Origin: Candidatus Omnitrophota bacterium
Lineage (GTDB): Bacteria > Omnitrophota > Gorgyraeia > Zapsychrales > JANLHA01
DNA length: 64,000 nucleotides
Reading direction: 5' to 3'
NCBI GenBank assembly: GCA_963662715.1
Contig: OY759724.1
Coordinates: forward strand, 2,522,662-2,586,661
This document shows positions 1,089 through 57,025 of the stretch, one piece after another; the first letter of the stretch is position 1, and each line of letters starts with the position of its first letter. A program made the translations under genes and the position numbers. The notes below the pieces were generated by a model. The model saw only the letters and a program-made list of their open reading frames with translations, did no database searches and had not been told where the DNA came from.

Positions 1089-3161
1089 ATGCAGATGAGT
1101 AAGGGAAAGTTTTACAGGGCTTTATTAGCGGTTATCTTTTTATCGCAGAGTACGCTGGGCGCCGCGTTTGCCCAGACAACCGTCTTTGACCTTGGCCAGG
1201 TGGTTGTGTCGGAGGACGAAGATGTTCAAGAAAAGCTGATGATTGAAGAAAAAACCAGGATCAGCCAGAAAACGCTTAAATCCCATAAGGTCGTTGACCT
1301 TGCCGAGATACTTTCGGATGAAATGATTGAAGCGTCCATGATACGCAAAAGCGGTTATGGCAATGAAGTGGGCTTGAGAGGTTTTACCAAGAGCAATCTG
1401 CGTTTTACCTTAGATGACACACTCATCGAGGGGTCTTGCGGAAGCCGCAAAGACCCGCCGCTTTCCCATATCAACCTTCTTGCGATCAAACGGATTGAAG
1501 TAAAGGAAGGCCCCTATGATGTCAGCGTTCCGGGAGCCTTGGGTGGCGATATTAATGTCATGACGAAAGACACACAAAAGGGTGTTCACGGAGAAGCGCT
1601 TTCCAAATTCGGCTCTTTCGGATATTTCAGTCAAGGCGGATATGTAACCGCCGGAAGCGCTTCTTGGCAGGGGTTGTTGGGATACAATTATTCCAAATCC
1701 GGACAGTACAAAGACGGTGCGGGCAATGAGCTGAGCAGTTTTAACCCGGCTTATAACGATGACGGCAAGAACATGGACGCCTTCAGGAAAAATGATTTCT
1801 GGGGGAAGGTTTTTGTTGAACTTTCAGAGAAACAAAATCTGTTATTTTCATCTTCCTATGGTGAGGCCAGCGACATCATGACGCCGCGCGTTGCCATGGA
1901 TACCGAAAAGGAGAAGACGTATCTTAATAAGGTCGAATACACGTTCGGTGATTTGAACTCTATTTCCGATCAGTTAAGATTATCCGCATACTACAACCGC
2001 GTTGAGCATTATCCGTATGGTGAATACAGAACAGGCGGGGTTAATAACCGAAGGATCGAGGCGATTTCGTCGATCACCGGCGCGCAGCTGGAAAATAAGA
2101 CGTTAAGTGATCTGGCGGTTTTTACCTACGGAACGGATCTCTATCATCGTAACTGGTACGGCGATGTATTCGACAGAACGACCGGCGCAGTCGTGAATGA
2201 TAATTTGTTCCCGGACGTGAATGAGCTCAATTTCGGTTTGTATGTTAAGGCGGAACGTGACATTGGGAAACTGTCCGCGACAGCCGGATTACGGTTGGAC
2301 GTTTTTCATTCGGAGGCAAATGAGGATTTGAAGTTCAGCAAGGCGATGACGGACACGAACGCTCAGACGGATGTTTTGCCGGGTGCGAATGTGTTCCTGA
2401 AATATTTCTTCACTGAGGACACCAAAGTTTTCGGCGGTGTCGGACTGACGAACAGGACGCCAACGGCTGTTGAACGTTATATACAGGAAGGCGCTACGTA
2501 TTACGGTAATCCTGACCTTAAACCGTCGCGTAATTTTGAGACTGATCTTGGGGTTGAAAGCAAATTGACGCCGCGTTTGAAATTTAAAACAAAAGTTTTT
2601 TACAGCTATCTGCCGGACTACATATACCAGCAGGCCAGCGGGGGCGTTAAAACTTACACAAACATTGACGCGTATATGTTTGGAGGCGATGCGACAGCTG
2701 TTTATGATTTGTTGCAAGGGTTCGCGCTTGAGGGCGGTGTCGCTTATCAGCGGGGAAGGAAACTCGATCAGCCGGCGGGCAATAACGACAAACATCTGTC
2801 CGAAATATGTCCGCTTAAAACCAAGCTCGCTTTGACTTTCGAGAAGAACGGCTTCTTTGCTGTCTACGAGTGGATGCATTCGCTGGACAGCAAGGACATT
2901 GACCGTGACGCCGGCGAAACCCTTCTGAAAGGCTGGGATGTGTTTAACTTCCGGGCGGGATATCAGTTTTTCGAAGAAGAGGGGCGGCAGGCTTTCCTGA
3001 ACGGCTTAAGTCTGAATTTCGGCATTGACAATATGTTTGATAAAAAGTATACAATGGCAAATTCTTACGAATATGATCCGACGGATCCGGGCGGAACGAA
3101 TGTTAAAATCGTCAATGAGCCGGGACGTTTTATTTATGGCAGTCTGTCGTATAAGTTTTAA
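1089..3161 (+). CDS. TonB-dependent outer membrane receptor
   Basis: N-terminal signal peptide (ends AFAQ), plug-like N-terminal region, long beta-barrel body, C-terminal aromatic residue (…SYKF). Confidence 0.8.
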   Translation: MQMSKGKFYRALLAVIFLSQSTLGAAFAQTTVFDLGQVVVSEDEDVQEKLMIEEKTRISQKTLKSHKVVDLAEILSDEMIEASMIRKSGYGNEVGLRGFTKSNLRFTLDDTLIEGSCGSRKDPPLSHINLLAIKRIEVKEGPYDVSVPGALGGDINVMTKDTQKGVHGEALSKFGSFGYFSQGGYVTAGSASWQGLLGYNYSKSGQYKDGAGNELSSFNPAYNDDGKNMDAFRKNDFWGKVFVELSEKQNLLFSSSYGEASDIMTPRVAMDTEKEKTYLNKVEYTFGDLNSISDQLRLSAYYNRVEHYPYGEYRTGGVNNRRIEAISSITGAQLENKTLSDLAVFTYGTDLYHRNWYGDVFDRTTGAVVNDNLFPDVNELNFGLYVKAERDIGKLSATAGLRLDVFHSEANEDLKFSKAMTDTNAQTDVLPGANVFLKYFFTEDTKVFGGVGLTNRTPTAVERYIQEGATYYGNPDLKPSRNFETDLGVESKLTPRLKFKTKVFYSYLPDYIYQQASGGVKTYTNIDAYMFGGDATAVYDLLQGFALEGGVAYQRGRKLDQPAGNNDKHLSEICPLKTKLALTFEKNGFFAVYEWMHSLDSKDIDRDAGETLLKGWDVFNFRAGYQFFEEEGRQAFLNGLSLNFGIDNMFDKKYTMANSYEYDPTDPGGTNVKIVNEPGRFIYGSLSYKF

Positions 3162-3173
3162 GAGAGGATAATA

Positions 3174-3770
3174 ATGACGAACTTTATTATTAGAGGCGGT
3201 TTTTTTATCTGGCCGATTCTTTTGTGCTCGGTCGTTTCCTTGGCGGTTATCCTGGAAAGGTTGAAGTATTTTCACCGGACGGGCGCTCGTAATAAAAATT
3301 TACCGGAGCGGGTGCAGGTATTGATCAACAGCAAGAGGCCTGATGAATCATATAAACTTTGCAAGCAGGATGAAAGCTTTGTCGGACGTTTTCTGGCGGT
3401 CGGGATCAAGGTCATGGATCAGCCGGTAGAGGAAAGGGGGAAGATACTCCGCAGGGCCGGATCCCGGGAGCTCGAAGAAGGCGAAAAACATTTGCGGATA
3501 CTTTCGGTGATAGGCAACATCGCGACCTTATTGGGGCTTTTGGGAACTGTGACCGGTATGATTCAGACTTTTATTAAGATCGAGGCCGCAGGCGGGACAA
3601 CGGAAGTGGCTTTGCTCGCGGGGGGGATATGGGAGGCGCTTCTTACGACAGCGGCAGGTTTAAGCGTAGCTATCCCGACCCTGGTCATGTACCATTACTT
3701 TGAAGGGATCGTTGACAGTCGGGCGGTTCAGTATAAGAACCTGGCCGCGGATATCTTTAATCTGCATTAA
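3174..3770 (+). CDS. exbB: ExbB/TolQ/MotA-family proton channel
   Basis: About 200 aa with 3 TM segments. Conserved GLLGTVTGMIQTF and ALLTTAAGL motifs. Located between the receptor and exbD/tonB. Confidence 0.85.
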   Translation: MTNFIIRGGFFIWPILLCSVVSLAVILERLKYFHRTGARNKNLPERVQVLINSKRPDESYKLCKQDESFVGRFLAVGIKVMDQPVEERGKILRRAGSRELEEGEKHLRILSVIGNIATLLGLLGTVTGMIQTFIKIEAAGGTTEVALLAGGIWEALLTTAAGLSVAIPTLVMYHYFEGIVDSRAVQYKNLAADIFNLH

Positions 3771-3784
3771 TAGCGGAGGTTAAT

Positions 3785-4210
3785 TTGAGTTCATTCGAGC
3801 TTGAAAGACGAAGAAAGGCGGACACGGTTTTAAATATCGCTCCTCTGATCGATATTGTCTTTTTGCTTTTGATATTTTTTGTGCTTTCGGCTCATTTTGT
3901 TTCACAGAAAGGCTTTAAGGTGAAATTGCCCAAGGCGGTCAGCGCCCAGACGCAAAAGAACGAACAGGTGACGGTTTTTATCAATAAAGAGGGCGGTATT
4001 TTCGTGAATGGCTTGGGAATCGAGCCCGTTCAACTTAAAAATTTCCTCCGTTCGGAATTGAACAAAGCAAACGCTAAAACGGTGGTCATTAAGGCTGATG
4101 AGGATGTCTCCCTGGGTTTAATCGTCCAGGTGATGGATATCGCTAAGGAGGCAAACGCGGACGGCCTTGTGATATCTACTAAAACAGCAAACGATGAAAA
4201 AAATAAATGA
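3785..4210 (+). CDS. exbD: ExbD/TolR biopolymer transport protein (TTG start)
   Basis: 141 aa with a single N-terminal TM (PLIDIVFLLLIFF) and a periplasmic domain; operon context. Confidence 0.85.
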   Translation: MSSFELERRRKADTVLNIAPLIDIVFLLLIFFVLSAHFVSQKGFKVKLPKAVSAQTQKNEQVTVFINKEGGIFVNGLGIEPVQLKNFLRSELNKANAKTVVIKADEDVSLGLIVQVMDIAKEANADGLVISTKTANDEKNK

Positions 4211-4772
4211 GCTGCATTCGAGCCTTTTGATTTCTTTTATTGTTCATGCGGGAATAGTCGGTTCCGGTTTATTGCCCTTTCATCCCGTCCTGAAAGACAA
4301 GCCTTTTGACGTTGCCTTTGAAGTCGAAGAAGAGGTGTTGCCGGAAGTTTTTGAGGTCAGGGAAGAAAAGAGAGTGGAGCCGCCGGTCATTGAGCGGGAA
4401 GAGCTGCTTGAACCGGTGCCGGATGAAATAAAAGCCGAGGGCCTAAAACCCGCGCAAGAGGATGAAGAGCACAAGAAATCACTTCTGCGGTATCAAGACA
4501 GCATAAAGCAGAGAATTCAAAAGGAAAAACAGTATCCGCGCTGGGCCCTCAGGGCCAGACATCAGGGGGTCGTCAGAATAGTTTTTGATGTGTTGCCTGC
4601 AGGGCTGGTCAAAAATTTAAGTCTTTTGCAGTCATCCGGATTTAAGGAATTGGATGAAGAGGCTCTGGATGCGGTTAAAAGAGCAAGCCCCTTTGATCCT
4701 TTCCCTGAGGTTTTTAGTGAGGATGAAATTCAGGTTGAAGTAGCTATTATTTTTACATTTAGAGAAAAATAG
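4194..4772 (+). CDS. tonB: Energy transducer TonB
   Basis: N-terminal TM, Pro/Glu-rich spacer, C-terminal TonB_C-like domain (QYPRWALRARHQGVVRIVFDV…). Confidence 0.75.
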   Translation: MKKINELHSSLLISFIVHAGIVGSGLLPFHPVLKDKPFDVAFEVEEEVLPEVFEVREEKRVEPPVIEREELLEPVPDEIKAEGLKPAQEDEEHKKSLLRYQDSIKQRIQKEKQYPRWALRARHQGVVRIVFDVLPAGLVKNLSLLQSSGFKELDEEALDAVKRASPFDPFPEVFSEDEIQVEVAIIFTFREK

Positions 4773-4806
4773 AAAGGGGCAGTCCCCATTTGGGGACTGC
4801 CCCCTT
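4773..4806. terminator. Bidirectional rho-independent terminator between the convergent tonB and C25-peptidase genes. It shares the palindromic core CAGTCCCCnTTTGGGGACTG with the terminator at 554-585.
   Basis: aaaggggcagtcccc-attt-ggggactgcccctt; perfect GC-rich stem. Confidence 0.7.
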
Positions 4807-4836
4807 GGCTTCCTTGGCCTTTTCTACCGCTATCCC

Positions 4837-7800
4837 TTAGCAGGGGCCACAATCATAAGCACAGCTCATACAGTCTTCACCATACTCTGTCTCACAAACG
4901 GAATTGCCGCAGTAAGGACTCGGACAATCATGCTGACAGGTTTGGTGTATTTCCGCTACTTCGCATATGGGAACGCCATATGTCGGATCCGGAACATTAC
5001 ACGTCTCCGTACAATCCGGGCGGCAGGTGTATCCGTCTTCGTAGATCGGGTTCATAGGGTCGTCATTCCACTCGCAGGTGCCGTTGCCGCAGTACGGGCT
5101 CGGGCAATCGTGCTGGCAGGATTCAAACCCTTCGGTTTCCTCGCAGATCGGGACACCTAGCTCCGGATCGGGAACGTTGCAGGTCACGGCGCAGTCCGGG
5201 CGGCAGGTGTATCCGTCTTCGTAGATCGGGTTCATAGGGTCGTCATTCCACTCGCAGGTGCCGTTGCCGCAGTACGGGCTCGGGCAGTCATGCTGGCAGG
5301 ATTCAAACCCTTCGGTTACCTCGCAGATCGGAACGCCCAATTCTGGATCAGGAACGTTGCAGGTCACGGCGCAGTCCGGGCGGCAGGTGTATCCGTCTTC
5401 ATAGATGGGGTTCATAGGGTCGTCATTCCACTCGCAGGTGCCGTTGCCGCAGTACGGGCTCGGGCAATCGTGCTGGCAGGATTCAAACCCTTCGGTTTCC
5501 TCGCAGATCGGGACACCTAGCTCCGGATCGGGAACGTTGCAGGTCACGGCGCAGTCCGGGCGGCAGGTGTATCCGTCTTCGTAGATCGGGTTCATAGGAT
5601 CGTCATTCCACTCGCAGATGCCGTTGCCGCAGTACGGGCTCGGGCAATCATGCTGGCAGGATTCAAACCCTTCGGTTTCCTCACAGATCGGGACACCTAA
5701 CTCCGGATCAGGAACGTTGCAGGTCACGGCGCAGTCCGGGCGGCAGGTGTATCCGTCTTCATAGATCGGGTTCATAGGGTCGTCATTCCACTCGCAGGTG
5801 CCGTTGCCGCAGTACGGGCTCGGGCAATCGTGCTGGCAGGATTCAAACCCTTCGGTCACCTCGCAGATCGGAACGCCCAATTCCGGATCAGGAACGTTGC
5901 AGGTCACGGCGCAGTCCGGGCGGCAGGTGTATCCGTCTTCATAGATCGGGTTCATAGGGTCGTCATTCCACTCGCAGGTGCCGTTGCCGCAGTACGGGCT
6001 CGGGCAATCGTGCTGGCAGGATTCAAACCCTTCGGTCACCTCGCAGATCGGAACGCCTAACTCCGGATCAGGAACGTTGCAGGTCACGGCGCAGTCCGGG
6101 CGGCAGGTGTAACCGTCCTCGTAGATCGGGTTCATAGGATCGTCATTCCACTCGCAGGTGCCGTTGCCGCAGTACGGGCTCGGGCAATCGTGCTGGCAGG
6201 ATTCAAACCCTTCGGTCACCTCGCAGATCGGAACGCCTAACTCCGGATCAGGAACGTTGCAGGTCTCGGCACAGTCCGGCAGACATGTATAAGCGTCCTC
6301 ATAGATCGGATCCATGGGATCGTCGTTCCACTCGCAAACACCGTTACCGCAAGTCGGAATGGGACAATCCTGGGGGCAAATATCATAACCCTCGTCTGCT
6401 TGGCAAATACCGTCCCCGCAATTTGCTGAAGTGCCGGAATCAGCCAGAAAACCAATATCAACCTGCCCGTACATCCTGGAGATGCTGTTGGCTGTCGGAT
6501 ATCCGTTCCCATACCGGTAACACGTTGATTGAATCGAGATGTTGTCATACGTCTGCGGGAAATAATCGATACCGTATCTATAAGAAGCCCCGCTGCCGGC
6601 CATGTAAGCCGCAACAGTGTACGTCTCTCCCTGGGTTACGGGCACAGGGGTGGGGAGGTCGACAAAACTCCATTCATTACTGGCGGTAACCGCCGCGCTG
6701 GCCAGTAAATTCTGTGATGAATCCCAAAGATACACGGTTTTTGTGCCGTTGAAGAAGCCGCCCAACTGGGTTATTTCCCCGTCGACTTCCGGGACGAAAC
6801 GATACCCCATGGTATAATTCCACCTGATATTTGTCCTTAAGGTTCCGTTTTCGTTGGTTTGCCAGGGCGTCTCCGGAATAACCTGCAGGCCGGAAATCGT
6901 CATTTCAGGATCGCCCAAAAGATTCAGTTCAAGAATCGCGTACTTCATGTATTCATTGCTGACGGTCTGTCCGATGAACGGAACTTTTGACATGGCCAGG
7001 GTCTGACCGATGCGGTTTATTTCGTCAACAACGATAGTTTCAAAAAAGGAAGGATCCAGGTAGGTGTCGGATTCCGGGTGCCAGCCATAGCGGCTGTTTC
7101 CGGCTAAAGCAACAGCGCCGCCATCAGGGTTGTTTAACCAGTGTTCGGCAATTGTGTCCGTGTCAATGGCCGCAAAATAGCAGCCCACTGACCATAAGAC
7201 GGAGTAGTCCGGGGCATTGCTGAAACTGTCCACATCTTGAGTTGTGATGTAATCACTGCCGGTATACATGCGGTCAATATCGGCATGATCAATGTGATTG
7301 ATAATGTGATGTCCGGAATTGATTTCCGTTATGGCCTGAGCACTGTAAGCATAAAGGTCTCTTTCGTAAAGTTTCGTGATCGGATCAAATTGCTGCGGCA
7401 TATACTGCGCGTCAATGTAGTCTTTGGTTTGGCCGCCGGCATCCTGAAAGTCTTCGCATCCCAGGAACAGGGCCGTGTTATAAAAGTCGGGATTTTGTCC
7501 CTGAATATAGGTCAGGATTTTACTGACAAAAACCTGGGCTTCCTGCTGATCCTCTACCGGAGCCCGTCCGACAAAAACATCCGGATACAGGTCCAGATTG
7601 TCTTCGTATTCTCCGAAAATGCTGTCCTGATCAGCGTCCCAATCACCGTCTAAATCAGAATAGTACATGTCCGTGGGGATGTAAGAAGATGCGACATAAG
7701 CCGGCCGGACAGGGACAATGTTGACATCTCCGCCCAGCAACACCCAGACAAGACCGTTGTTCGTATAGAGGTCGATGATGAAGTTCCGAATCTTCTCGGC

Positions 7801-8724
7801 TGTGTCACGGCCGGATACGTTTTGCTCTATCCATTCCACAGACTCAATTTCAGCCGTGAGTCCCTGATTTGTTTTTTCATCCAGTAACGGCTGAAAAACC
7901 TGGCTGGTAATAAGGGCTTGACTGGTGATAATGATGTAGTCAACAGTCCCTGAATAGCTACCGGCCAGCAGGATTTCGCCGCTGAGCTCTGCTTCTACGG
8001 CTGAGCGGGAATCCTGCAGAGTCGTATCGACCGCCTCGCTGTTGGTGAACACTTTTTTAAAGGCGTCTTTTAACGCTTTGTCTGATTTGTCGGATATTGT
8101 TTTTCTTTTCCGGTGTTTTATGTCTTTGCTTGATGAGGCGGCGGTGTTTTTGCCGGTTCGCTCTTCTGAACTTAACTTGAATTTAATTTTCTTATGCAGA
8201 ATCAGTTCTTTTTGAGCGGGCAAATATTGTATGGGGTAGACATGGACCGTAACAATATTCACGTCGCTTAAGTTCCCGGATTTTACCTTCTTGATCATTT
8301 CAGCCGGGTAAAGTTCTTGTGATGCATAGGCGTCCTTGTCCGGATTGGTAAAAGAATATTGGCTCCCGTAATGCTGGGATTCCTGCGCCGGATAAAGCAA
8401 AAACTCTCCTTCCAATTTTTCAGTAACATCTTCTAGGATCTCGATGCCTGTCACTTCGATATCATTGGCAACAGCGAACTGGTAAACTTTATACGGGACC
8501 TGCGGTTTCCCCGCCTCTCTCGTTGAAGCATGCCAGTTCGTTTTAATGATATCGTAGCCTTCTTCTGCCGTGATGTTCAGATCACTCTGGGAGAATTCTA
8601 TCTCGTGAATGATATCTTCACTTTGGGCCGCTAATACTGAAATTCGCGCTGAAGAAAACAGTATAGAAAATAACAGCATTTGCATCAGCAGTCCCAGGTG
8701 TTTCTTGCGTCTATACTTATTCAT
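4837..8724 (-). CDS. Secreted gingipain-like cysteine peptidase (MEROPS C25 fold). Its C-terminus is an array of 8 full plus 1 truncated 60-aa Cys-rich modules with 8 Cys each.
   Basis: Signal peptide (…ISVLAAQ). The catalytic region matches gingipain/C25 in two places: INHIDHADIDRMYTGSDY (His) and SVLWSVGCYFAAID…GGAVALAGNSRYGW (Cys). The C-terminal 527 aa are repeats of CPSPYCGNGTCEWNDDPMNPIYEDGYTCRPDCAVTCNVPDPELGVPICEVTEGFESCQHD. Confidence 0.8.
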   Translation of the reverse strand: MNKYRRKKHLGLLMQMLLFSILFSSARISVLAAQSEDIIHEIEFSQSDLNITAEEGYDIIKTNWHASTREAGKPQVPYKVYQFAVANDIEVTGIEILEDVTEKLEGEFLLYPAQESQHYGSQYSFTNPDKDAYASQELYPAEMIKKVKSGNLSDVNIVTVHVYPIQYLPAQKELILHKKIKFKLSSEERTGKNTAASSSKDIKHRKRKTISDKSDKALKDAFKKVFTNSEAVDTTLQDSRSAVEAELSGEILLAGSYSGTVDYIIITSQALITSQVFQPLLDEKTNQGLTAEIESVEWIEQNVSGRDTAEKIRNFIIDLYTNNGLVWVLLGGDVNIVPVRPAYVASSYIPTDMYYSDLDGDWDADQDSIFGEYEDNLDLYPDVFVGRAPVEDQQEAQVFVSKILTYIQGQNPDFYNTALFLGCEDFQDAGGQTKDYIDAQYMPQQFDPITKLYERDLYAYSAQAITEINSGHHIINHIDHADIDRMYTGSDYITTQDVDSFSNAPDYSVLWSVGCYFAAIDTDTIAEHWLNNPDGGAVALAGNSRYGWHPESDTYLDPSFFETIVVDEINRIGQTLAMSKVPFIGQTVSNEYMKYAILELNLLGDPEMTISGLQVIPETPWQTNENGTLRTNIRWNYTMGYRFVPEVDGEITQLGGFFNGTKTVYLWDSSQNLLASAAVTASNEWSFVDLPTPVPVTQGETYTVAAYMAGSGASYRYGIDYFPQTYDNISIQSTCYRYGNGYPTANSISRMYGQVDIGFLADSGTSANCGDGICQADEGYDICPQDCPIPTCGNGVCEWNDDPMDPIYEDAYTCLPDCAETCNVPDPELGVPICEVTEGFESCQHDCPSPYCGNGTCEWNDDPMNPIYEDGYTCRPDCAVTCNVPDPELGVPICEVTEGFESCQHDCPSPYCGNGTCEWNDDPMNPIYEDGYTCRPDCAVTCNVPDPELGVPICEVTEGFESCQHDCPSPYCGNGTCEWNDDPMNPIYEDGYTCRPDCAVTCNVPDPELGVPICEETEGFESCQHDCPSPYCGNGICEWNDDPMNPIYEDGYTCRPDCAVTCNVPDPELGVPICEETEGFESCQHDCPSPYCGNGTCEWNDDPMNPIYEDGYTCRPDCAVTCNVPDPELGVPICEVTEGFESCQHDCPSPYCGNGTCEWNDDPMNPIYEDGYTCRPDCAVTCNVPDPELGVPICEETEGFESCQHDCPSPYCGNGTCEWNDDPMNPIYEDGYTCRPDCTETCNVPDPTYGVPICEVAEIHQTCQHDCPSPYCGNSVCETEYGEDCMSCAYDCGPC
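4930..6290. repeat. Near-identical 180-bp coding tandem repeat, about 7.5 copies, inside the C25 peptidase gene
   Basis: Visible directly. For example the blocks starting near 5041, 5221, 5401, 5581, 5761, 5941 and 6121 differ by only a few nucleotides. Confidence 0.9.
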
Positions 8725-9046
8725 TTGTTCTCCTTTGGTTTGCCGTAGTGGATAAACAGTATGACATTTATCGGAAAGAGGGGGGGATGAATAATAGGTA
8801 TTGACATAGCACAGTTTAAAGATTTTTTTTGTAATAATTAAGATGTCAATAATATTATCTGCACGCCTTCTATAGGGCTGTTGCTTACTTTTATAATATT
8901 AATGGTAGACTATTATTTTAGCATTTTAGATGTGGAAATCAACCGCTTTCGCCGTGGAATAAGCATTTCTTTGTGATTTCACAATTTTGTCAAGAGGTTA
9001 GGAGTTAAAACAAGTGGTCAGTGTTCCGGCACAACCGTGGATAATA

Positions 9047-11663: not shown

Positions 11664-12323
11664 ATGAAAAGAGTTGTTTTCTTAAGTGTTTTATTTGTTA
11701 TTTTTACCTGTAGCAACGCCATGGCTTCCGTGATTACTTTTGATGATGTCATCATGGGAGAAACCACGTATAGCTTCGACTCTGATGGAGACAGTATTTA
11801 TGATGTGATTTTTTCAACTTCAGATCCATATGGGTTTAATACGGTCGGGCCGGGAACAAATATGTCGTATATCCTTGAACCTGGATTAGAAGGTTCGACA
11901 GAATACGATCTTAGAGTCGATTTTCTTAACCAAGCGCAAGGTTATCTTAATTTCGGTTTTGCCCTCGATGATTTTTCCGAAACCTCCAACACTTGGACTG
12001 AATTTTGGGTATACGATAACGTTGGCAACCTCTTAGCGCATGATTTTGAATACGGACTATATACGACACCAGATGGTTCTAATCCGAGTGATTTCCCCGA
12101 GGGATTAATCGAGACCAGCTTTTCAGGTATCGCAAGCTATGCGCTTTTTGATTTTAATAATGACGTTTCTGGTGGACAAAGGTATATTATCGATAATTTT
12201 GAAGGTGTTTTCGGGTCAACAGAAGTTCCTCCCGCTAACCCAGTCCCTGAACCTGCAACAATGTTTTTATTGGGATCAGGTTTATTAGGACTTGCAAGAA
12301 AGAGGAAAAAGTCATTACTTTAA
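11664..12323 (+). CDS. PEP-CTERM sorting-domain secreted protein (exosortase substrate)
   Basis: Signal peptide, then at the C-terminus VPEP + hydrophobic helix (ATMFLLGSGLLGLA) + RKRKK, the canonical PEP-CTERM tripartite signal. Confidence 0.8.
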   Translation: MKRVVFLSVLFVIFTCSNAMASVITFDDVIMGETTYSFDSDGDSIYDVIFSTSDPYGFNTVGPGTNMSYILEPGLEGSTEYDLRVDFLNQAQGYLNFGFALDDFSETSNTWTEFWVYDNVGNLLAHDFEYGLYTTPDGSNPSDFPEGLIETSFSGIASYALFDFNNDVSGGQRYIIDNFEGVFGSTEVPPANPVPEPATMFLLGSGLLGLARKRKKSLL

Positions 12324-52801: not shown

Positions 52802-55800
52802 TTGTTATATAGAGCAAAGGAGTGTGTTTTGTCTTTGGGAAGAATACTCTGTTCCAGAATTTTTAGTTATGTATTAACGATAATAATCACTTTCACCTTT
52901 GTTTTTTACCCTCTGACACCTTCCCGTTATGTTTTTGCCCGGGAAGCGGCCATCCTCGGTTTGCCTGTTCCAGGAACACAGCTCCGGACGTCTGAAAGCT
53001 ATGAGCCGGCTCTTGTCAAAGGCATAACGATATATCCCGACAAGCCTCTGCAATTTAATTTTATTGTTCATCCGGGGGATGACCGGTTGAAGGGTGAGGC
53101 CCTGCAGCAGGAATCTTTAAAGATGATTAAATATTTCCTGGCTACCCTGACTATCCCGAAAGACGAGATGTGGGTCAATTTGTCCCCTTATGAGAAGGAC
53201 CGCATTATTCCTGAAAATCTCGGTATAACGGAAATAGGCCGGGACATGCTGGCGCAGGATTATCTTCTTAAGCAGTTAACCGCTTCCTTAATATATCCGG
53301 AAGAGTCCCTGGGCCGCCGTTTCTGGGACCGCGTCTATAACAAAGTGTATAAGGAATTCGGATTAAAAGAGGTCCCGATCAACACCTTTAATAAAGTCTG
53401 GATCGTCCCGGATAAAGCCGTTGTTTACGAACATGACAATACCGCGTTTGTCATTGACCAGCATTTGAAAGTCATGCTGGAGGAAGATTATCTTGCCTTG
53501 CAGGAAAGCCGGGGTTCGGATGTTTTCCGCAAAAAGAAGATGGATGAAAAAGAGATTTCGGGCATCAACCACGTCTCCTCGGAAATTCTGCGCACCATTA
53601 TTATCCCTGAGATAGAAAAGGAAGTTAACTCAGGCAGAACGTTTGCCGACTTAAGGCAGATCTATAACGCCATGATTCTGGGTATATGGTACAAACAGAC
53701 ACTCAAGAATAGTTTGTTGGCGTCTGTTTATGCCGACCAAAATAAAATTGTCGGCGTGGATGTTGATGATAAGGAGATCAAAGAAAAGATTTACAGACTT
53801 TACATTGAAGCGTACGGGAAAGGGGTCTTCAATTATATCCGTGAAGATACTGATCCCCAGACGCAGGATGTCATCCCGAGAAAATATTTCTCCGGGGGAC
53901 TGGTGGCCCCGGCCCAGGTTACGGTCAAGAACGATTTCGCTCAATTGAATACTGCCGAAAGGCGGAATGTCCGCACGATCGTCAGTTCCCCGATCCAGCA
54001 TCAGGGGATTATTGTCAAAACTTTGGAGCTGAGCCGTCCGGATGCTGAGGCCCGGATTTTAGACATGCTGCGGCAGGCTCTGTTAAAAGATGAGGGGAGA
54101 ACGTTCAGCGTTCTTCAGGACGTGGCCGATTTATTATCCCGGGACGACATGAGGACGATCCCTGATATTCGTGCGGCCCTGGAGCCCTTCAGGGGACGGT
54201 ATTTTTATGACCTGGCCTACGGATATCAGAAAGACAGCCTTGTGCTGGAGCGGGGGGCGGAACTCTGGCTGGTCGTTGATGCGGCCAAGAGAGAAGGGGA
54301 CCGGCTTTACCGGTACATCAAGGCCCGGGACAGTGTTAAGGAAGAAGGCGACAAAGATATCCGTGAGATCATGGATTTCCCGGAGAGTCACTGGCAGATC
54401 GTGCGGGTCCGCAAGGGCGACCTGGAACAGGACAAGCTTATTGATCTGCAGTTGATCGAAGACCATGATTTCCGTGTTATTGACCTGGTGGAAGAAGGGC
54501 GGGATTTAAGAGAAGATGATATCGGGCAGGGTATCGAAGGAGCCAGAGACAGGATTATCGGGGAACTGGATTATCAGGATTATTTGCAGTCGTTTGTGTC
54601 GAGATTGCAGGGAAAAACGATAATGGACGAGAGCGGCCGGACCATCCCGTTATTTGTGAATGAAAAAATCCGGACCGGGGAAGATTTATTAACGGCTTTT
54701 GAACAGGCCCGTCCTTTTCTCGATCAGTTCGATGAGAGCGACCCTATGGAGGATGTGTATGCGCGTTTGCGGGATGTAGGCCTGGAACGCGGCTGGGGAG
54801 ACACGCTGTCCGAAATGAAGACGAGGCTGGATTTGCTGCTGGAATCCGCCGGGGCTGCAGATTCCGTGAGCAGAAAAAGCCTTTTAATGGAACTGGATGA
54901 CCTGACCCCCACAGCGTTATCAGCCGTCTTTGTGAGTACCCATGGATGGTTTGTCCAGGAAAATGCTTTCGGGAAACCCGATACGGGCGGTCAGGTGAGT
55001 TTTGTGCGGGACGAAGCCAAAGCCATGGCTAAAGAGATCGCCGGTAAGATGGAAAGAGCCGGGATTCCCGGTAAAGCTGTCGCCCTGATATTCACGCGCC
55101 TGATTCCCAAAGCCGAGGACACGACCGCCGATCTTCCGGAGGAGTCGGTCTACGAGGATGACCGTCAGGTCGTTAAACTGGTCCGGGTGCCTTTTGAGGA
55201 TCAGGAGCGGTCCGGGGAGGTCAGGGGCCGTCCGCAACCTAAAAATATTCTGGAAGTCATTCAGGCTTTTATCCGGCGGTTTGAAATATGGTCGTATATT
55301 ACTCAGGAAGAATTTATTAATACGGCCGGAGCCAGGATAACAGAGGTGATGAACAGGTACGGGCAGGAGGGGCCGGATATTATTATGGGGAATTATTCCG
55401 ACGGGAACCTGCTGGCGGGCAAATTGTCGGACTATTATGGCGGGAACGTCCCGGTTGTCATGACAGCCCATGCCCTGGAATTGAGCAAATATTTTAAAAG
55501 CATGCTGGAAAACGGCCGCCTGATCGATAACTGGTTTGAGACGGAAGACGGCCGTTATTTGGCGGCCCAGGCTTTGATCGATGCCTGGGTGATGCGTAAG
55601 GCCGATATTATCGAGACGAGCACGTTGCTGGAAATACTCGGCCAGTATTCCTATTATGAATCATTTGAATTTGAAAATCTTTTCCGGGTGGATAACGGGA
55701 TTAAACTTACGGACGGAAAGTTTGTCCTGAATGAACCCAGCGTTGACCAGCGGACAGTAACAAACCCGGACGGGCTGTTCTTCGCCTATGAAGGGCCTGA

Positions 55801-57025
55801 TGATGTCCGCCGGCAGGAGTTTGCCGATGCCAATGCTCTCTGGCAGGCCAAGATTTTTGCTGCTCCTGATGGCAAAAATAAAGTCTACGACCGGTTCGCT
55901 GACTGGAAAGATTCATCCAAACCGGTTGTTTTCACGATGGCGCGTTTTGATTCCCGGAAAAATATTGCGGGCCTGGTTGAGGAGTTCGCTAAAGCGGGCC
56001 TTAAAGACAGGGCCAATCTGGTGATCGTCGGCGGCAACACGGATTATATTATCGACGGAGACGGCAAGGTCGTCTTTAAAAGCCAGGACGGGTCTGACGA
56101 CATGAACGCCGAGGAACTCGCTATCGCGGAAAAGATTCTTGCCTTAGTGGAGCAATACGGTTTAGACGGACACATCCGCTGGATTTCGGCCAGTACTATT
56201 GCCCGTGAATCGGCTGAATTGTACCGGGTTATGGAAGCCCATCCCCAGGGGGCGATTTTCGCCCAGCCGGCTATTTTTGAGGCTTTTGGTTTAACAATTC
56301 TGGAAGCTATGGTCACAAAACTTATGGTTGTGGCTACGGATCAGGGAGGCCCGGCAGAGATCATCCGCCATCACCAGGACGGTTTTCTGGCCAATCCTGA
56401 AATCCCGGGAGAGTTCGGGGAACGGTTGGGGGAAGCTTTGGATGCCCTGGCCAACGCTGAACAGAAACAGGCGATTATCCATTCTGCCCTGGAACGGATC
56501 GCCAGTAAATACAGCTGGCGCAGGCGGGTGCAGAGAACCTTGCAGGCGACGAAATTGTTTTCCACGCTTAATGATGTTGACCGGAATCAGCGTCCGGACC
56601 ACTGGCAGGCCCGGAAACAATCCCAGGAGAAGGTTTACCGGGATATCCTGGATATGATTGACAATCTGGTGTGGGTTCATAAACTGGACCTTATTCCGCC
56701 GGAAGCACAGCCGGAAATGGAAAACCTGATCGGTGAGCAATTCAGAACGGGGGCGGAAGCCGTTTCAAGCCCGCTGGCTCAGGACGCCGAGACAGATGCC
56801 GGGTCTTATTACGGCGGTATCGATTTGAATTCAGATATGCTGGACCTGCAGATCAAACGTGACGGCCGGGGCGTGGCCCTGCCGCTTCCTCAGCAGCCGA
56901 TTCAGAATATGACAATCCAGGGATTCATGCCGATCATCATTGATGTTGTCCCGGTGAATGTTCCCTTGTTGTTAGGGACCTTGGAAAGCTCCTCTGATAA
57001 TATGCCGTCCGATGACGAAACATAG
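52802..57025 (+). CDS. 1407-aa sucrose-synthase-like glycosyltransferase (GT4, GT-B fold) with a roughly 400-aa N-terminal membrane-anchored extension of unknown function and a roughly 100-aa C-terminal tail
   Basis: Central and C-terminal regions match sucrose-synthase hallmarks in order. (a) GLERGWGDT…RLDLLLE (SuS [10 protein letters not shown]…LLDLLEAP). (b) [34 protein letters not shown] (SuS [33 protein letters not shown]). (c) [22 protein letters not shown]…ANLVIVGG (SuS [22 protein letters not shown]…). (d) [36 protein letters not shown] (SuS [36 protein letters not shown]). The N-terminus carries a hydrophobic helix ([19 protein letters not shown]). Confidence 0.75.
   Translation: [1407 protein letters not shown]

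Follow-up and report, generated by a model that had tools for sequence, protein, structure and literature searches.

We analysed a 64,000-nucleotide stretch of contig OY759724.1 (the window), which carries on its minus strand, at 4837..8724, a complete coding sequence for a C25-family peptidase with a cysteine-rich repeat tail (1295 codons plus stop, ATG start in the list of open reading frames (ORFs)). The repeat in this tail, which an earlier note on the same DNA had described as an unrecognised 60-residue, 8-cysteine module, is, as judged from its sequence, a widespread 4-Cys mini-module in an enlarged, paired form specific to this lineage. The product of the window gene is identical to the database protein P0001, which is encoded on a 3.36-Mb contig. 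Our account as a whole, which we consider probable, is that of a secreted C25 zymogen with a mini-module tail that has undergone concerted evolution and presumably acts as a stalk.

Tandem Repeats Finder detected a single array at 4904-6336 with a period of 180 bp, 8.0 copies, 92% matches and a score of 2297. Together with the translation, this confirmed the eight full repeats, the one truncated repeat and the consensus given in the earlier note. The eight 180-bp/60-residue units, called A1-A8 here, correspond to residues 787-1266 (4927..6366; this and the other features of the gene are on the minus strand) and were delimited by Tandem Repeats Finder and an identity matrix. Six homogenised internal units, A2-A7, lie at 5107..6186; they are 92-99% identical with mosaic, almost only synonymous differences, and their GC content at third codon positions (GC3) is 0.72-0.78. 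According to alignments A1 and A4, each unit pairs two enlarged mini-modules, first one of type II, CGNGTCEWNDDPMNPIYEDGYTCRPDC, with an AVT linker behind it, then one of type I, CNVPDPELGVPICEVTEGFESCQHDC, with a PSPY linker. Before A1, a regular expression and the translation revealed a canonical 19-residue 4-Cys mini-module, CGDGICQADEGYDICPQDC (residues 769-787; 6364..6420), which the earlier note had left unseparated. This is the unmodified form of the repeat and exactly matches the 19-residue family consensus of 608 instances. The protein ends with a truncated ninth unit of 29 residues, the end piece CPSPYCGNSVCETEYGEDCMSCAYDCGPC (residues 1267-1295; 4840..4926), which is a type II module of short length with two additional Cys; the tail closes with CGNSVCETEYGEDCMSCAYDCGPC, and the same end piece is present in the ortholog P0002. 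The tail reads as 18 mini-modules, namely one canonical, eight times two enlarged and one terminal, and the 60-residue module that had been taken as elementary is instead a pair of 4-Cys mini-modules with loop insertions.

The insertion in the type II mini-module is 6 residues long (CGNGTCEWNDD-PMNPIY-EDGYTCRPDC), and in the type I mini-module an 11-residue loop takes the place of "GNG" between the first and the second Cys (C-NVPDPELGVPI-CEVTEGFESCQHDC). These loop insertions, of 6 or 7 residues, are unique to the window lineage in alignments A1 and A4. All eight type II modules keep every conserved residue of the family, with a loop of 16 residues between the second and the third Cys, and the eight type I modules keep the Cys, Glu and Asp and have lost G-N-G to the 11-residue loop. 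Alignment A4, with 46 sequences, spans five consecutive modules, and none of their 20 Cys varies. The 527 residues from 769 to 1295 contain 74 Cys, a little more than the 70 counted before, and just 3 are found in the first 768 residues. The tail is 14% Cys and 13% Pro, with 110 Asp and Glu residues versus no Lys and 7 Arg.

The mini-module family was collected as 1260 instances in 154 proteins, and conservation was calculated from the canonical ones, 608 with the 19-residue consensus C-G-[ND]-G-x-C-[ED]-x-G-E-x3-[TSN]-C-P-x-D-C and 323 of a 21-residue variant. In these, the Cys are conserved in 100%, the Gly at position 2 in 96-98%, and the Glu and the Asp in 99% each. Both forms fall under the general consensus C-G-[ND]-G-x-C-x(3-5)-E-x4-C-P-x-D-C. 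The window tail belongs to this family, which is defined by the spacing C-x4-C-x(8 or 10)-C-x3-C with Gly at position 2, Glu before the third Cys and Asp before the fourth. The loop between the second and the third Cys has 8 or 10 residues in 75% of instances and 14 or more in ~2%, and all four Cys are intact in 928 of the 935 array modules. With the tail as query, word-indexed homolog searches found no more than 2-3 proteins, its sequence being of low complexity. When 1.84 billion cluster representatives were searched exhaustively with a HMMER profile of the unit, 264 matched at E ≤ 1e-3 (43 at E ≤ 1e-10), with the best E down to 1e-70; among the 264, the 60-residue units were present in the window's own cluster only. 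We also scanned 185,579 species genomes with a degenerate DNA pattern for C-G-[DN]-G-x-C-x3-E-x4-C-x2-D-C, for which about one chance match is expected from our estimate of its information content. The canonical pattern was found at at least 120 genome loci of bacteria and archaea, often in tandem with periods of 66-75 bp, and the matches listed include Myxococcota, DPANN archaea (Woese-, Nano-, Micr- and Aenigmatarchaeota), Methanosarcinales, Patescibacteria, Planctomycetota, Omnitrophota and other phyla. The peptide CEWNDDPM of the enlarged form had no further copy in the 185k species genomes or the JGI metagenomes, and the search for the same module elsewhere that the earlier note had proposed found no other carrier within the 64-kb window.

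No Pfam model matches segments of the tail at E ≤ 10, NCBIfam gave no meaningful match at this threshold, and it has none on pure-array proteins either. A profile search of the PDB with alignment A1 gave no match at E ≤ 10, and the best Foldseek E-values for the module were 4.9 in the PDB (the EGF array of SCARF1) and 8.4 among viral structures. The module is in this sense uncurated, that is, without a model in Pfam and NCBIfam, the two libraries checked, and the earlier note had not recognised it either; the dockerin, EGF or knottin identity for which it had proposed to look finds no support in these Pfam, PDB profile and Foldseek searches. Literal motif strings were not found in the literature searched. 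The repeat called CysRRep in a preprint (10.64898/2026.06.07.730663) was considered as this module and rejected because its Cys spacing is different. On this sequence evidence the mini-module is a widespread extracellular repeat outside the coverage of Pfam, NCBIfam and solved structures.

A hydrophobic segment is present at the N-terminus of 94 of 138 family proteins. The arrays contain 1-23 modules and are always acidic (median net charge, -0.17 per residue), and they are located at the extreme C-terminus in 29 proteins, just before a C-terminal transmembrane-like segment in 11 and otherwise between domains. They are combined with S8 subtilases, a reprolysin/M11-like zincin, trypsin, GH18, a GH2-like barrel, an H-type lectin, PKD, beta-helix and SH3_3 domains, and they also occur in LamG/FN3 giants and in an archaeal class III signal peptide protein. 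The module behaves, as far as partners and positions can tell, as a promiscuous extracellular spacer, stalk or adhesive module, and its distribution would agree with a general role as extracellular stalk or spacer no less well than with binding. A special adaptation of the Lys/Arg-poor tail to an Arg/Lys-specific protease was considered and rejected, because the depletion is typical of the whole module family.

The history of the array can be read from the ortholog P0002 (ENA ERZ21869602, locus L001), which is 81% identical to the window protein; outside the repeats, the two are 79.3% identical at the protein level and 76.9% at the DNA level, and the array of P0002 has seven full units versus eight in the window. 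The DNA identity among the window internal units A2-A7 is 92.2-98.9% with a mean of 95.3%, so that the earlier value of more than 95% holds as the mean of these units and not for the first and the last unit (70-86%): the first unit shares 81-86% with the internal units and 70% with the last, and the last shares 81-83% with the internal units. The internal units of L001 are 97-100% identical to each other, whereas those of the window and L001 are only 79-81% identical. The identity within arrays (92-100%) therefore exceeds both that between arrays and that of the non-repeat part, in line with the concerted evolution that the earlier note had suggested. Array-wide substitutions between the window and L001 are PSPY/PSPF, GNGTC/GNGAC and PELGVPICEVT/PQLGFPICEAS, and common to both arrays are the two loop insertions, the first unit (PIPT...DAYTCLPDC), the last unit (...EIHxTCQHD) and the end piece. 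The presence of the insertions and of the distinctive edge units in both orthologs suggests that the array predates the split of the two lineages. Hence the very recent expansion proposed earlier does not apply to the array itself, and only a recent homogenisation of the internal units can be retained; in the window, their divergence of up to 8% suggests that even this was not extremely recent. In our reading of the aligned units, concerted evolution by unequal crossing-over or gene conversion is demonstrated: the interior would have been homogenised independently in each lineage while the edges partly escaped.

Third codon positions account for 15 of the 18 nucleotide columns that vary among the window internal units, the variants form mosaic haplotypes, and 14 variable codons are synonymous-only versus 2 that change the amino acid. 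Because the variants are mostly synonymous, the protein sequence of the tail is under purifying selection. L001 is on a 9.6-kb metagenome contig, and four of its consecutive 180-bp units (B2-B5, L001:5950-6670) have the same sequence throughout (100% identity, 720 bp), suggesting that the count of seven is unreliable and maybe an assembly approximation. The comparison of repeat number called for in the earlier note thus gives eight versus an unreliable seven, and the collapse that it considered is argued against for the window, where the units are distinguishable. GC3 is higher in the tail than in the rest of the gene, 0.70 (4840-6429) versus 0.55 (6430-8724) in the window and 0.46 (5902-7306) versus 0.31 (3638-5901) in L001, a rise of ~0.15 in both orthologs, and in the window the internal units lie above the edge units (0.62-0.63). 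This pattern fits GC-biased gene conversion, but the copies are not independent samples. Recent horizontal transfer as the source of the GC-rich tail was rejected, because both tails are raised similarly over non-repeat parts that match the composition of their own contigs. The agreement of each non-repeat part with the GC content of its own contig suggests that both genes are long-resident.

The part of the protein that precedes the tail has the layout of a C25 zymogen. The N-terminus, MNKYRRKK-LGLLMQMLLFSILFSS-ARISVLA/AQ, is similar to a Sec signal peptide (residues 1 to ~33, MNKYRRKKHLGLLMQMLLFSILFSSARISVLA followed by AQ; 8626..8724; read from the sequence), with a basic n-region, a hydrophobic core, a VLA-A cleavage-type motif and no lipobox Cys, and residues 2-28 form one helix in the AlphaFold2 (AF2) model. 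Cleavage would occur after about residue 33. A C25 pro-domain follows at residues ~38-200 (8125..8613): the Pfam model Propeptide_C25 matches residues 65-200 (39.6 bits versus a cutoff of 22, E=4e-10), the family profile matches the Kgp and RgpB pro-domains (5MUN and 4IEF_A), and Foldseek gives template modelling (TM) scores of 0.73-0.74 to the RgpB pro-domain chains 4IEF_A/C/E/G. Between the pro-domain and the catalytic domain there is a Lys/Arg-rich linker of low confidence (residues 201-262; 7939..8124). Lys and Arg make up 17.8% of residues 190-262 versus 4.3% of the catalytic domain, and the predicted local distance difference test (pLDDT) score falls below 50 at residues 192-201 and 248-254; in analogy to the zymogens of gingipains, this linker is likely to be the activation-cleavage region.

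The catalytic domain (residues 263-609; 6898..7938) matches PF01364 with 206.6 bits (cutoff 23, E=8.8e-61) over model positions 1-373 of 374. In the alignment of the family profile to 1CVR and 4IEF, His480 (NHIDH; codon at 7285..7287) and Cys515 (SVGC; codon at 7180..7182) are the equivalents of RgpB His211 and Cys244, which lie in the RgpB motifs NYTGH-G and DVAC-V, and both columns are at least 90% conserved among 34 homologs. When the N-terminal part was searched against the PDB as a single sequence with phmmer, no match was found and the family profile was required; the profile of the 34 homologs matched RgpB (1CVR/4IEF, ~1e-22), Kgp (4RBM, 5e-15) and also PorU (6ZA2). The AF2 model of residues 1-765 has pLDDT above 90 across most of residues 40-610 and shows the caspase-like alpha/beta catalytic fold of C25. 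Foldseek placed its catalytic domain with 6I9A (9e-22), 1CVR (5e-21), 4IEF_D (4e-20) and 4RBM (E 1e-19 to 1e-21, TM 0.64-0.69). The C25 peptidase with a His/Cys core that the earlier note recognised is thus upheld by Pfam, by the alignment to the RgpB dyad and by Foldseek at ~1e-21, and the peptidase activity of a zymogen and its inhibition by the pro-domain are predicted from this homology.

The catalytic domain is followed by a beta-rich DUF4082 domain (residues 635-746; 6487..6822; Pfam PF13313, 48.6 bits, cutoff 28.4). According to precomputed Pfam lists for the 120 best C25 homologs, DUF4082 is confined to the window protein P0001 and its ortholog P0002, and within this set no others have the 4-Cys module. 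The NCBIfam model of the PorU sortase, NF033707, scored 64 bits versus a cutoff of 420, which reflects the shared C25 core only. Neither a sorting domain of the type IX secretion system (T9SS; PF18962/TIGR04183) nor IgSF or adhesin domains were found on the window protein with Pfam and NCBIfam, so that the C-terminus of neither T9SS nor Ig type noted before stands; the protein ends in ...CAYDCGPC, and many C25 homologs do bear PF18962. Without a T9SS C-terminal domain, the protein is to be regarded as a C25-family zymogen but not as a gingipain in the strict sense of a T9SS cargo.

We propose that the gene encodes the Sec-exported zymogen of a cysteine endopeptidase of the gingipain family (MEROPS C25), in which the signal peptide, an inhibitory pro-domain, the Lys/Arg-rich linker, the catalytic domain and DUF4082 would be followed by a 527-residue non-catalytic tail. 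Two neighbouring mini-modules may each have gained a loop insertion, which AF2 models as small beta-hairpins with Trp/Tyr and acidic residues, and the 60-residue pair would then have served as the unit of tandem amplification. The common ancestor of the window organism and the ERZ21869602 organism would already have had the array. Thereafter, unequal recombination or gene conversion may have repeatedly homogenised the internal units and changed their number (8 versus 7), with the amino-acid sequence held by purifying selection and the two edge units partly escaping homogenisation. The tail itself is pictured as an extended, Pro-rich and highly acidic rod with two predicted disulfides per mini-module. 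Consistent with this picture, the AF2 model of residues 766-909, built with alignment A4 (mean pLDDT, 82.4; predicted TM score, 0.62; no segment below 50), has almost no helix or strand, and two-residue beta-bridges are seen in the inserted loops only (W34-N35 with I42-Y43 in construct numbering, and their equivalents in the next unit). Such a rod may serve as a stalk or tether by which the peptidase is held at a distance or attached outside the cell, replacing dockerin, PKD, Ig or T9SS C-terminal domains, and its poverty in Lys and Arg would make it hard for proteases to attack. The most likely role of the tail would be that of a disulfide-stapled acidic stalk or tether.

Several points weigh against this account. 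There is no sorting signal or anchor after the end piece, and a mere stalk would lack attachment if the tail did not bind something itself. In the inserted loops the amino-acid sequence is conserved and rich in aromatic and acidic residues, and a specific binding surface fits them as well as a spacer does. The disulfides are predicted, and an analysis of the loss of Cys pairs met only 7 degenerate modules among 935, too few to give the connectivity. Several of the lineages that bear the module are anaerobes, in which extracellular disulfides are less obvious. As for the parts before the tail, AF2 confidence is low across the DUF4082 region, and the S1 residue of RgpB, Asp163, on which Arg or Lys specificity depends, lies within the GESDIQ segment, which is an insertion relative to the family profile and has no alignable equivalent.

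In the main alternative, which follows the earlier note, the tail is a specific multivalent binding array (adhesive, carbohydrate-binding or Ca2+-dependent) whose enlarged loops target the peptidase to a substrate or cell. The tail is terminal with no anchor after it, and related C25 peptidases bear dockerin, cohesin, PKD, FN3 or beta-helix domains in the same position. The insertions, EWNDDPMNPIYEDGY and NVPDPELGVPI, are under the purifying selection seen in the codon counts above (14 synonymous-only versus 2 changing), AF2 shows them as beta-hairpins that expose Trp and Tyr, and with an invariant Glu and Asp in each module cation binding is conceivable. On the other hand, no known binding domain was matched by Pfam at E ≤ 10 or by Foldseek and no ligand can be inferred; family-wide, only the structural Cys, Gly, Glu, Asp and Pro are conserved and the loops are hypervariable, and the modules occupy spacer-like positions between domains or before transmembrane anchors. 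We regard a binding array as possible on this balance, clearly second to the stalk or tether. A bolder form of the idea, in which the module would be an undescribed and structurally unsolved extracellular domain whose loops were remodelled in this probably Omnitrophota lineage into aromatic/acidic hairpins, giving a multivalent targeting array with a length tuned by recombination, so as to direct the protease to a specific surface such as a host or prey envelope, appears rather doubtful to us.

Alternatively, each mini-module may be a Cys4 site for Zn or Fe, in which case the tail would bind metal or have a redox function. The four invariant Cys lie within 19-21 residues and are intact in 99% of modules, as would suit such a site, many of the host lineages are anaerobic, and the disulfide state of the tail is itself a prediction. 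However, the spacing C-x4-C...C-x3-C does not contain the CxxC knuckles of Zn ribbons and rubredoxins, no metal-binding family of Pfam was matched, the proteins have signal peptides and extracellular partner domains, and aerobic Myxococcota carry the module in large numbers, all of which makes this assignment quite unlikely. That the array or its copy number is an artefact of assembly, a collapsed or inflated duplication, is highly improbable, because although 180-bp units of 92-99% identity are hard for short-read assemblers and L001 does have four identical ones, every window unit can be told apart from the adjacent ones (in register, they are identical over at most 50-125 bp at a stretch), the frame is intact over 1295 codons, the differences are overwhelmingly synonymous as in real selected copies, the gene lies on a 3.36-Mb contig and the same architecture was recovered from an independent sample.

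The peptidase gene appears to be monocistronic. A promoter-like site, TTGACA-16-AAAAAT (8822..8849, minus strand), is located ~100 bp upstream of the start codon with 10 of 12 consensus matches; it is a consensus match only, and such sites are no more numerous in the region than expected from shuffling. On the other side, a gap of 64 bp separates the gene from a convergent TonB gene and contains an intrinsic-terminator-like hairpin (4773..4806, minus strand) with a 15-bp stem, 10 GC pairs and a T-run. Two ORFs in other frames of the GC-rich repeat/DUF4082 region, of 125 residues at 6237-6614 (minus) and 134 residues at 6285-6689 (plus), are most likely spurious by-products of composition and not genes to annotate.

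At 1089-4772 on the plus strand, convergent with the peptidase gene, the window contains a gene for a TonB-dependent receptor-like protein with a Plug domain and genes for ExbB, ExbD and TonB. A receptor with a Plug domain and a beta-barrel is also encoded next to the ortholog, divergently from its C25 gene (L001:1218-3152, minus strand). The two receptors did not match each other in tblastn at 1e-5, and no other flanking gene is in common. The presence of TonB-dependent uptake genes beside both C25 genes may reflect a functional coupling with extracellular proteolysis, or coincidence. Other neighbours in the window are two methyltransferases, a methyl-accepting chemotaxis protein (MCP) and a 219-residue protein at 11664-12323 (plus strand) with a C-terminal PEP-CTERM motif (E=3e-8). 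The PEP-CTERM motif implies an exosortase system and argues against a Bacteroidota/T9SS setting, and for the peptidase part as well as for the tail, the nearest named relatives are metagenome-assembled genomes (MAGs) of Omnitrophica, so that the host probably belongs to Omnitrophota and the comparison with Bacteroidota in the earlier note is probably the wrong frame. Farther along the window, at 52802-57025 on the plus strand, a 1407-residue ORF is sucrose-synthase-like at residues ~613-1214 (GT-B_Sucrose_synth, E=6e-45; Glycos_transf_1), and Pfam matches nothing in its ~600 N-terminal residues at E ≤ 1e-5.

As a peptidase the protein is unremarkable, since uncultured phyla commonly have secreted C25 enzymes of several domains, the tails of which are freely exchanged, and the locus has no bearing on any long-standing open question. 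It exposes a small repeat family of at least 264 protein clusters in many phyla of both prokaryotic domains, which is a candidate for curation and structure determination. It also offers a clean bacterial case of concerted evolution in a coding array, with two orthologous arrays, escaping edges, purifying selection and raised GC3, and a warning that the repeat counts of such genes in short-read MAGs are not trustworthy.

Compared with known systems, the window protein shares with the gingipains RgpB and Kgp of Porphyromonas gingivalis (1CVR, 4IEF, 4RBM, 6I9A, 5MUN) the order of pro-domain and caspase-like domain and the aligned His/Cys dyad, but the sequence identity is only 15-18%, and DUF4082 and the Cys-repeat tail are found where gingipains have IgSF, haemagglutinin/adhesin and T9SS C-terminal domains. 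The C25 peptidases P0003-P0017 (e.g., P0006 of Omnitrophica) are 45-50% identical over the pro-domain and the catalytic domain and have the same zymogen layout. Unlike the window protein, they have tails of dockerin, cohesin, PKD, FN3, BNR, beta-helix or FG-GAP.

The Myxococcus-type repeat (DUF4215/TIGR02232) likewise starts with CGDG and is acidic, extracellular and tandem with four Cys. However, it is ~32-38 residues long with the spacing C-x11-C-x11-C-x3-C, unlike the mini-module; the DUF4215 model did not match the tail at E ≤ 10, and hhalign gave a probability of 21% over the first 9 columns only. A DUF4215-type repeat and the mini-module occur together in some proteins, 2 of 53 in one set. 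Giant Cys-rich proteins from an Omnitrophota MAG (L082:1-8000, JACKFK010000006.1; 1427 residues with 160 Cys) and a Phycisphaerae MAG (L052; 1422 residues with 120 Cys) have the two repeats interleaved but distinct. Among eukaryotes, EGF-like repeats and the cysteine-rich domains of TNFR and RET form extended extracellular stalks of small tandem Cys modules that have little regular secondary structure and are often acidic or Ca-binding. The analogy is functional only, as no sequence or fold match to the tail was found and the window mini-module has 4 Cys in ~20 residues versus 6 in ~40 in the eukaryotic modules; one member of the family gave a sub-threshold match to RET_CRD (24.8 bits versus a cutoff of 26).

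The same alternation of type I and type II mini-modules as in the window is seen in the di-module proteins P0121, P0122 (Omnitrophica MAG GCA_018062515.1), P0126, P0127, P0129, P0138 and P0141. Their type I is CGDGICxxDEGxxLCxxDC, their type II is CGDGFCSAxDxEDGxTCxPDC, and the linkers are PSP-x and T-x-T; in P0121 and P0122, both retrieved with the tail as query, the order is CGDGICxPDEGxxLCxxDC, PSP-x, CGDGxCSAxDGEDGxxCQPDC and T-x-T. The units of these proteins are ~47 residues long without the two insertions of the window, and as a rule a secreted enzyme or lectin precedes the array, the partner being an S8 subtilase, a zincin, a GH2-like barrel or an H-type lectin and not C25 as in the window. 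In P0122 (L002:2014-2908), canonical di-modules are followed by repeats that look by eye like CarboxypepD_reg, and a cluster resembling a type II secretion system or type IV pilus (T2SSE, T2SSF, pseudopilins, PilM/N) lies ~1 kb downstream of its gene (L002:4085-10908). The S8 subtilase P0129 (2080 residues) has an insertion of its own in the type II loop with two extra Cys (CGDGICSVCNGPDPAYPCDPGYVENGLTCQPDC), present in four identical repeats at residues ~1840-2075. This independent insertion at the same loop suggests that the type II loop is a permissive site for elaboration.

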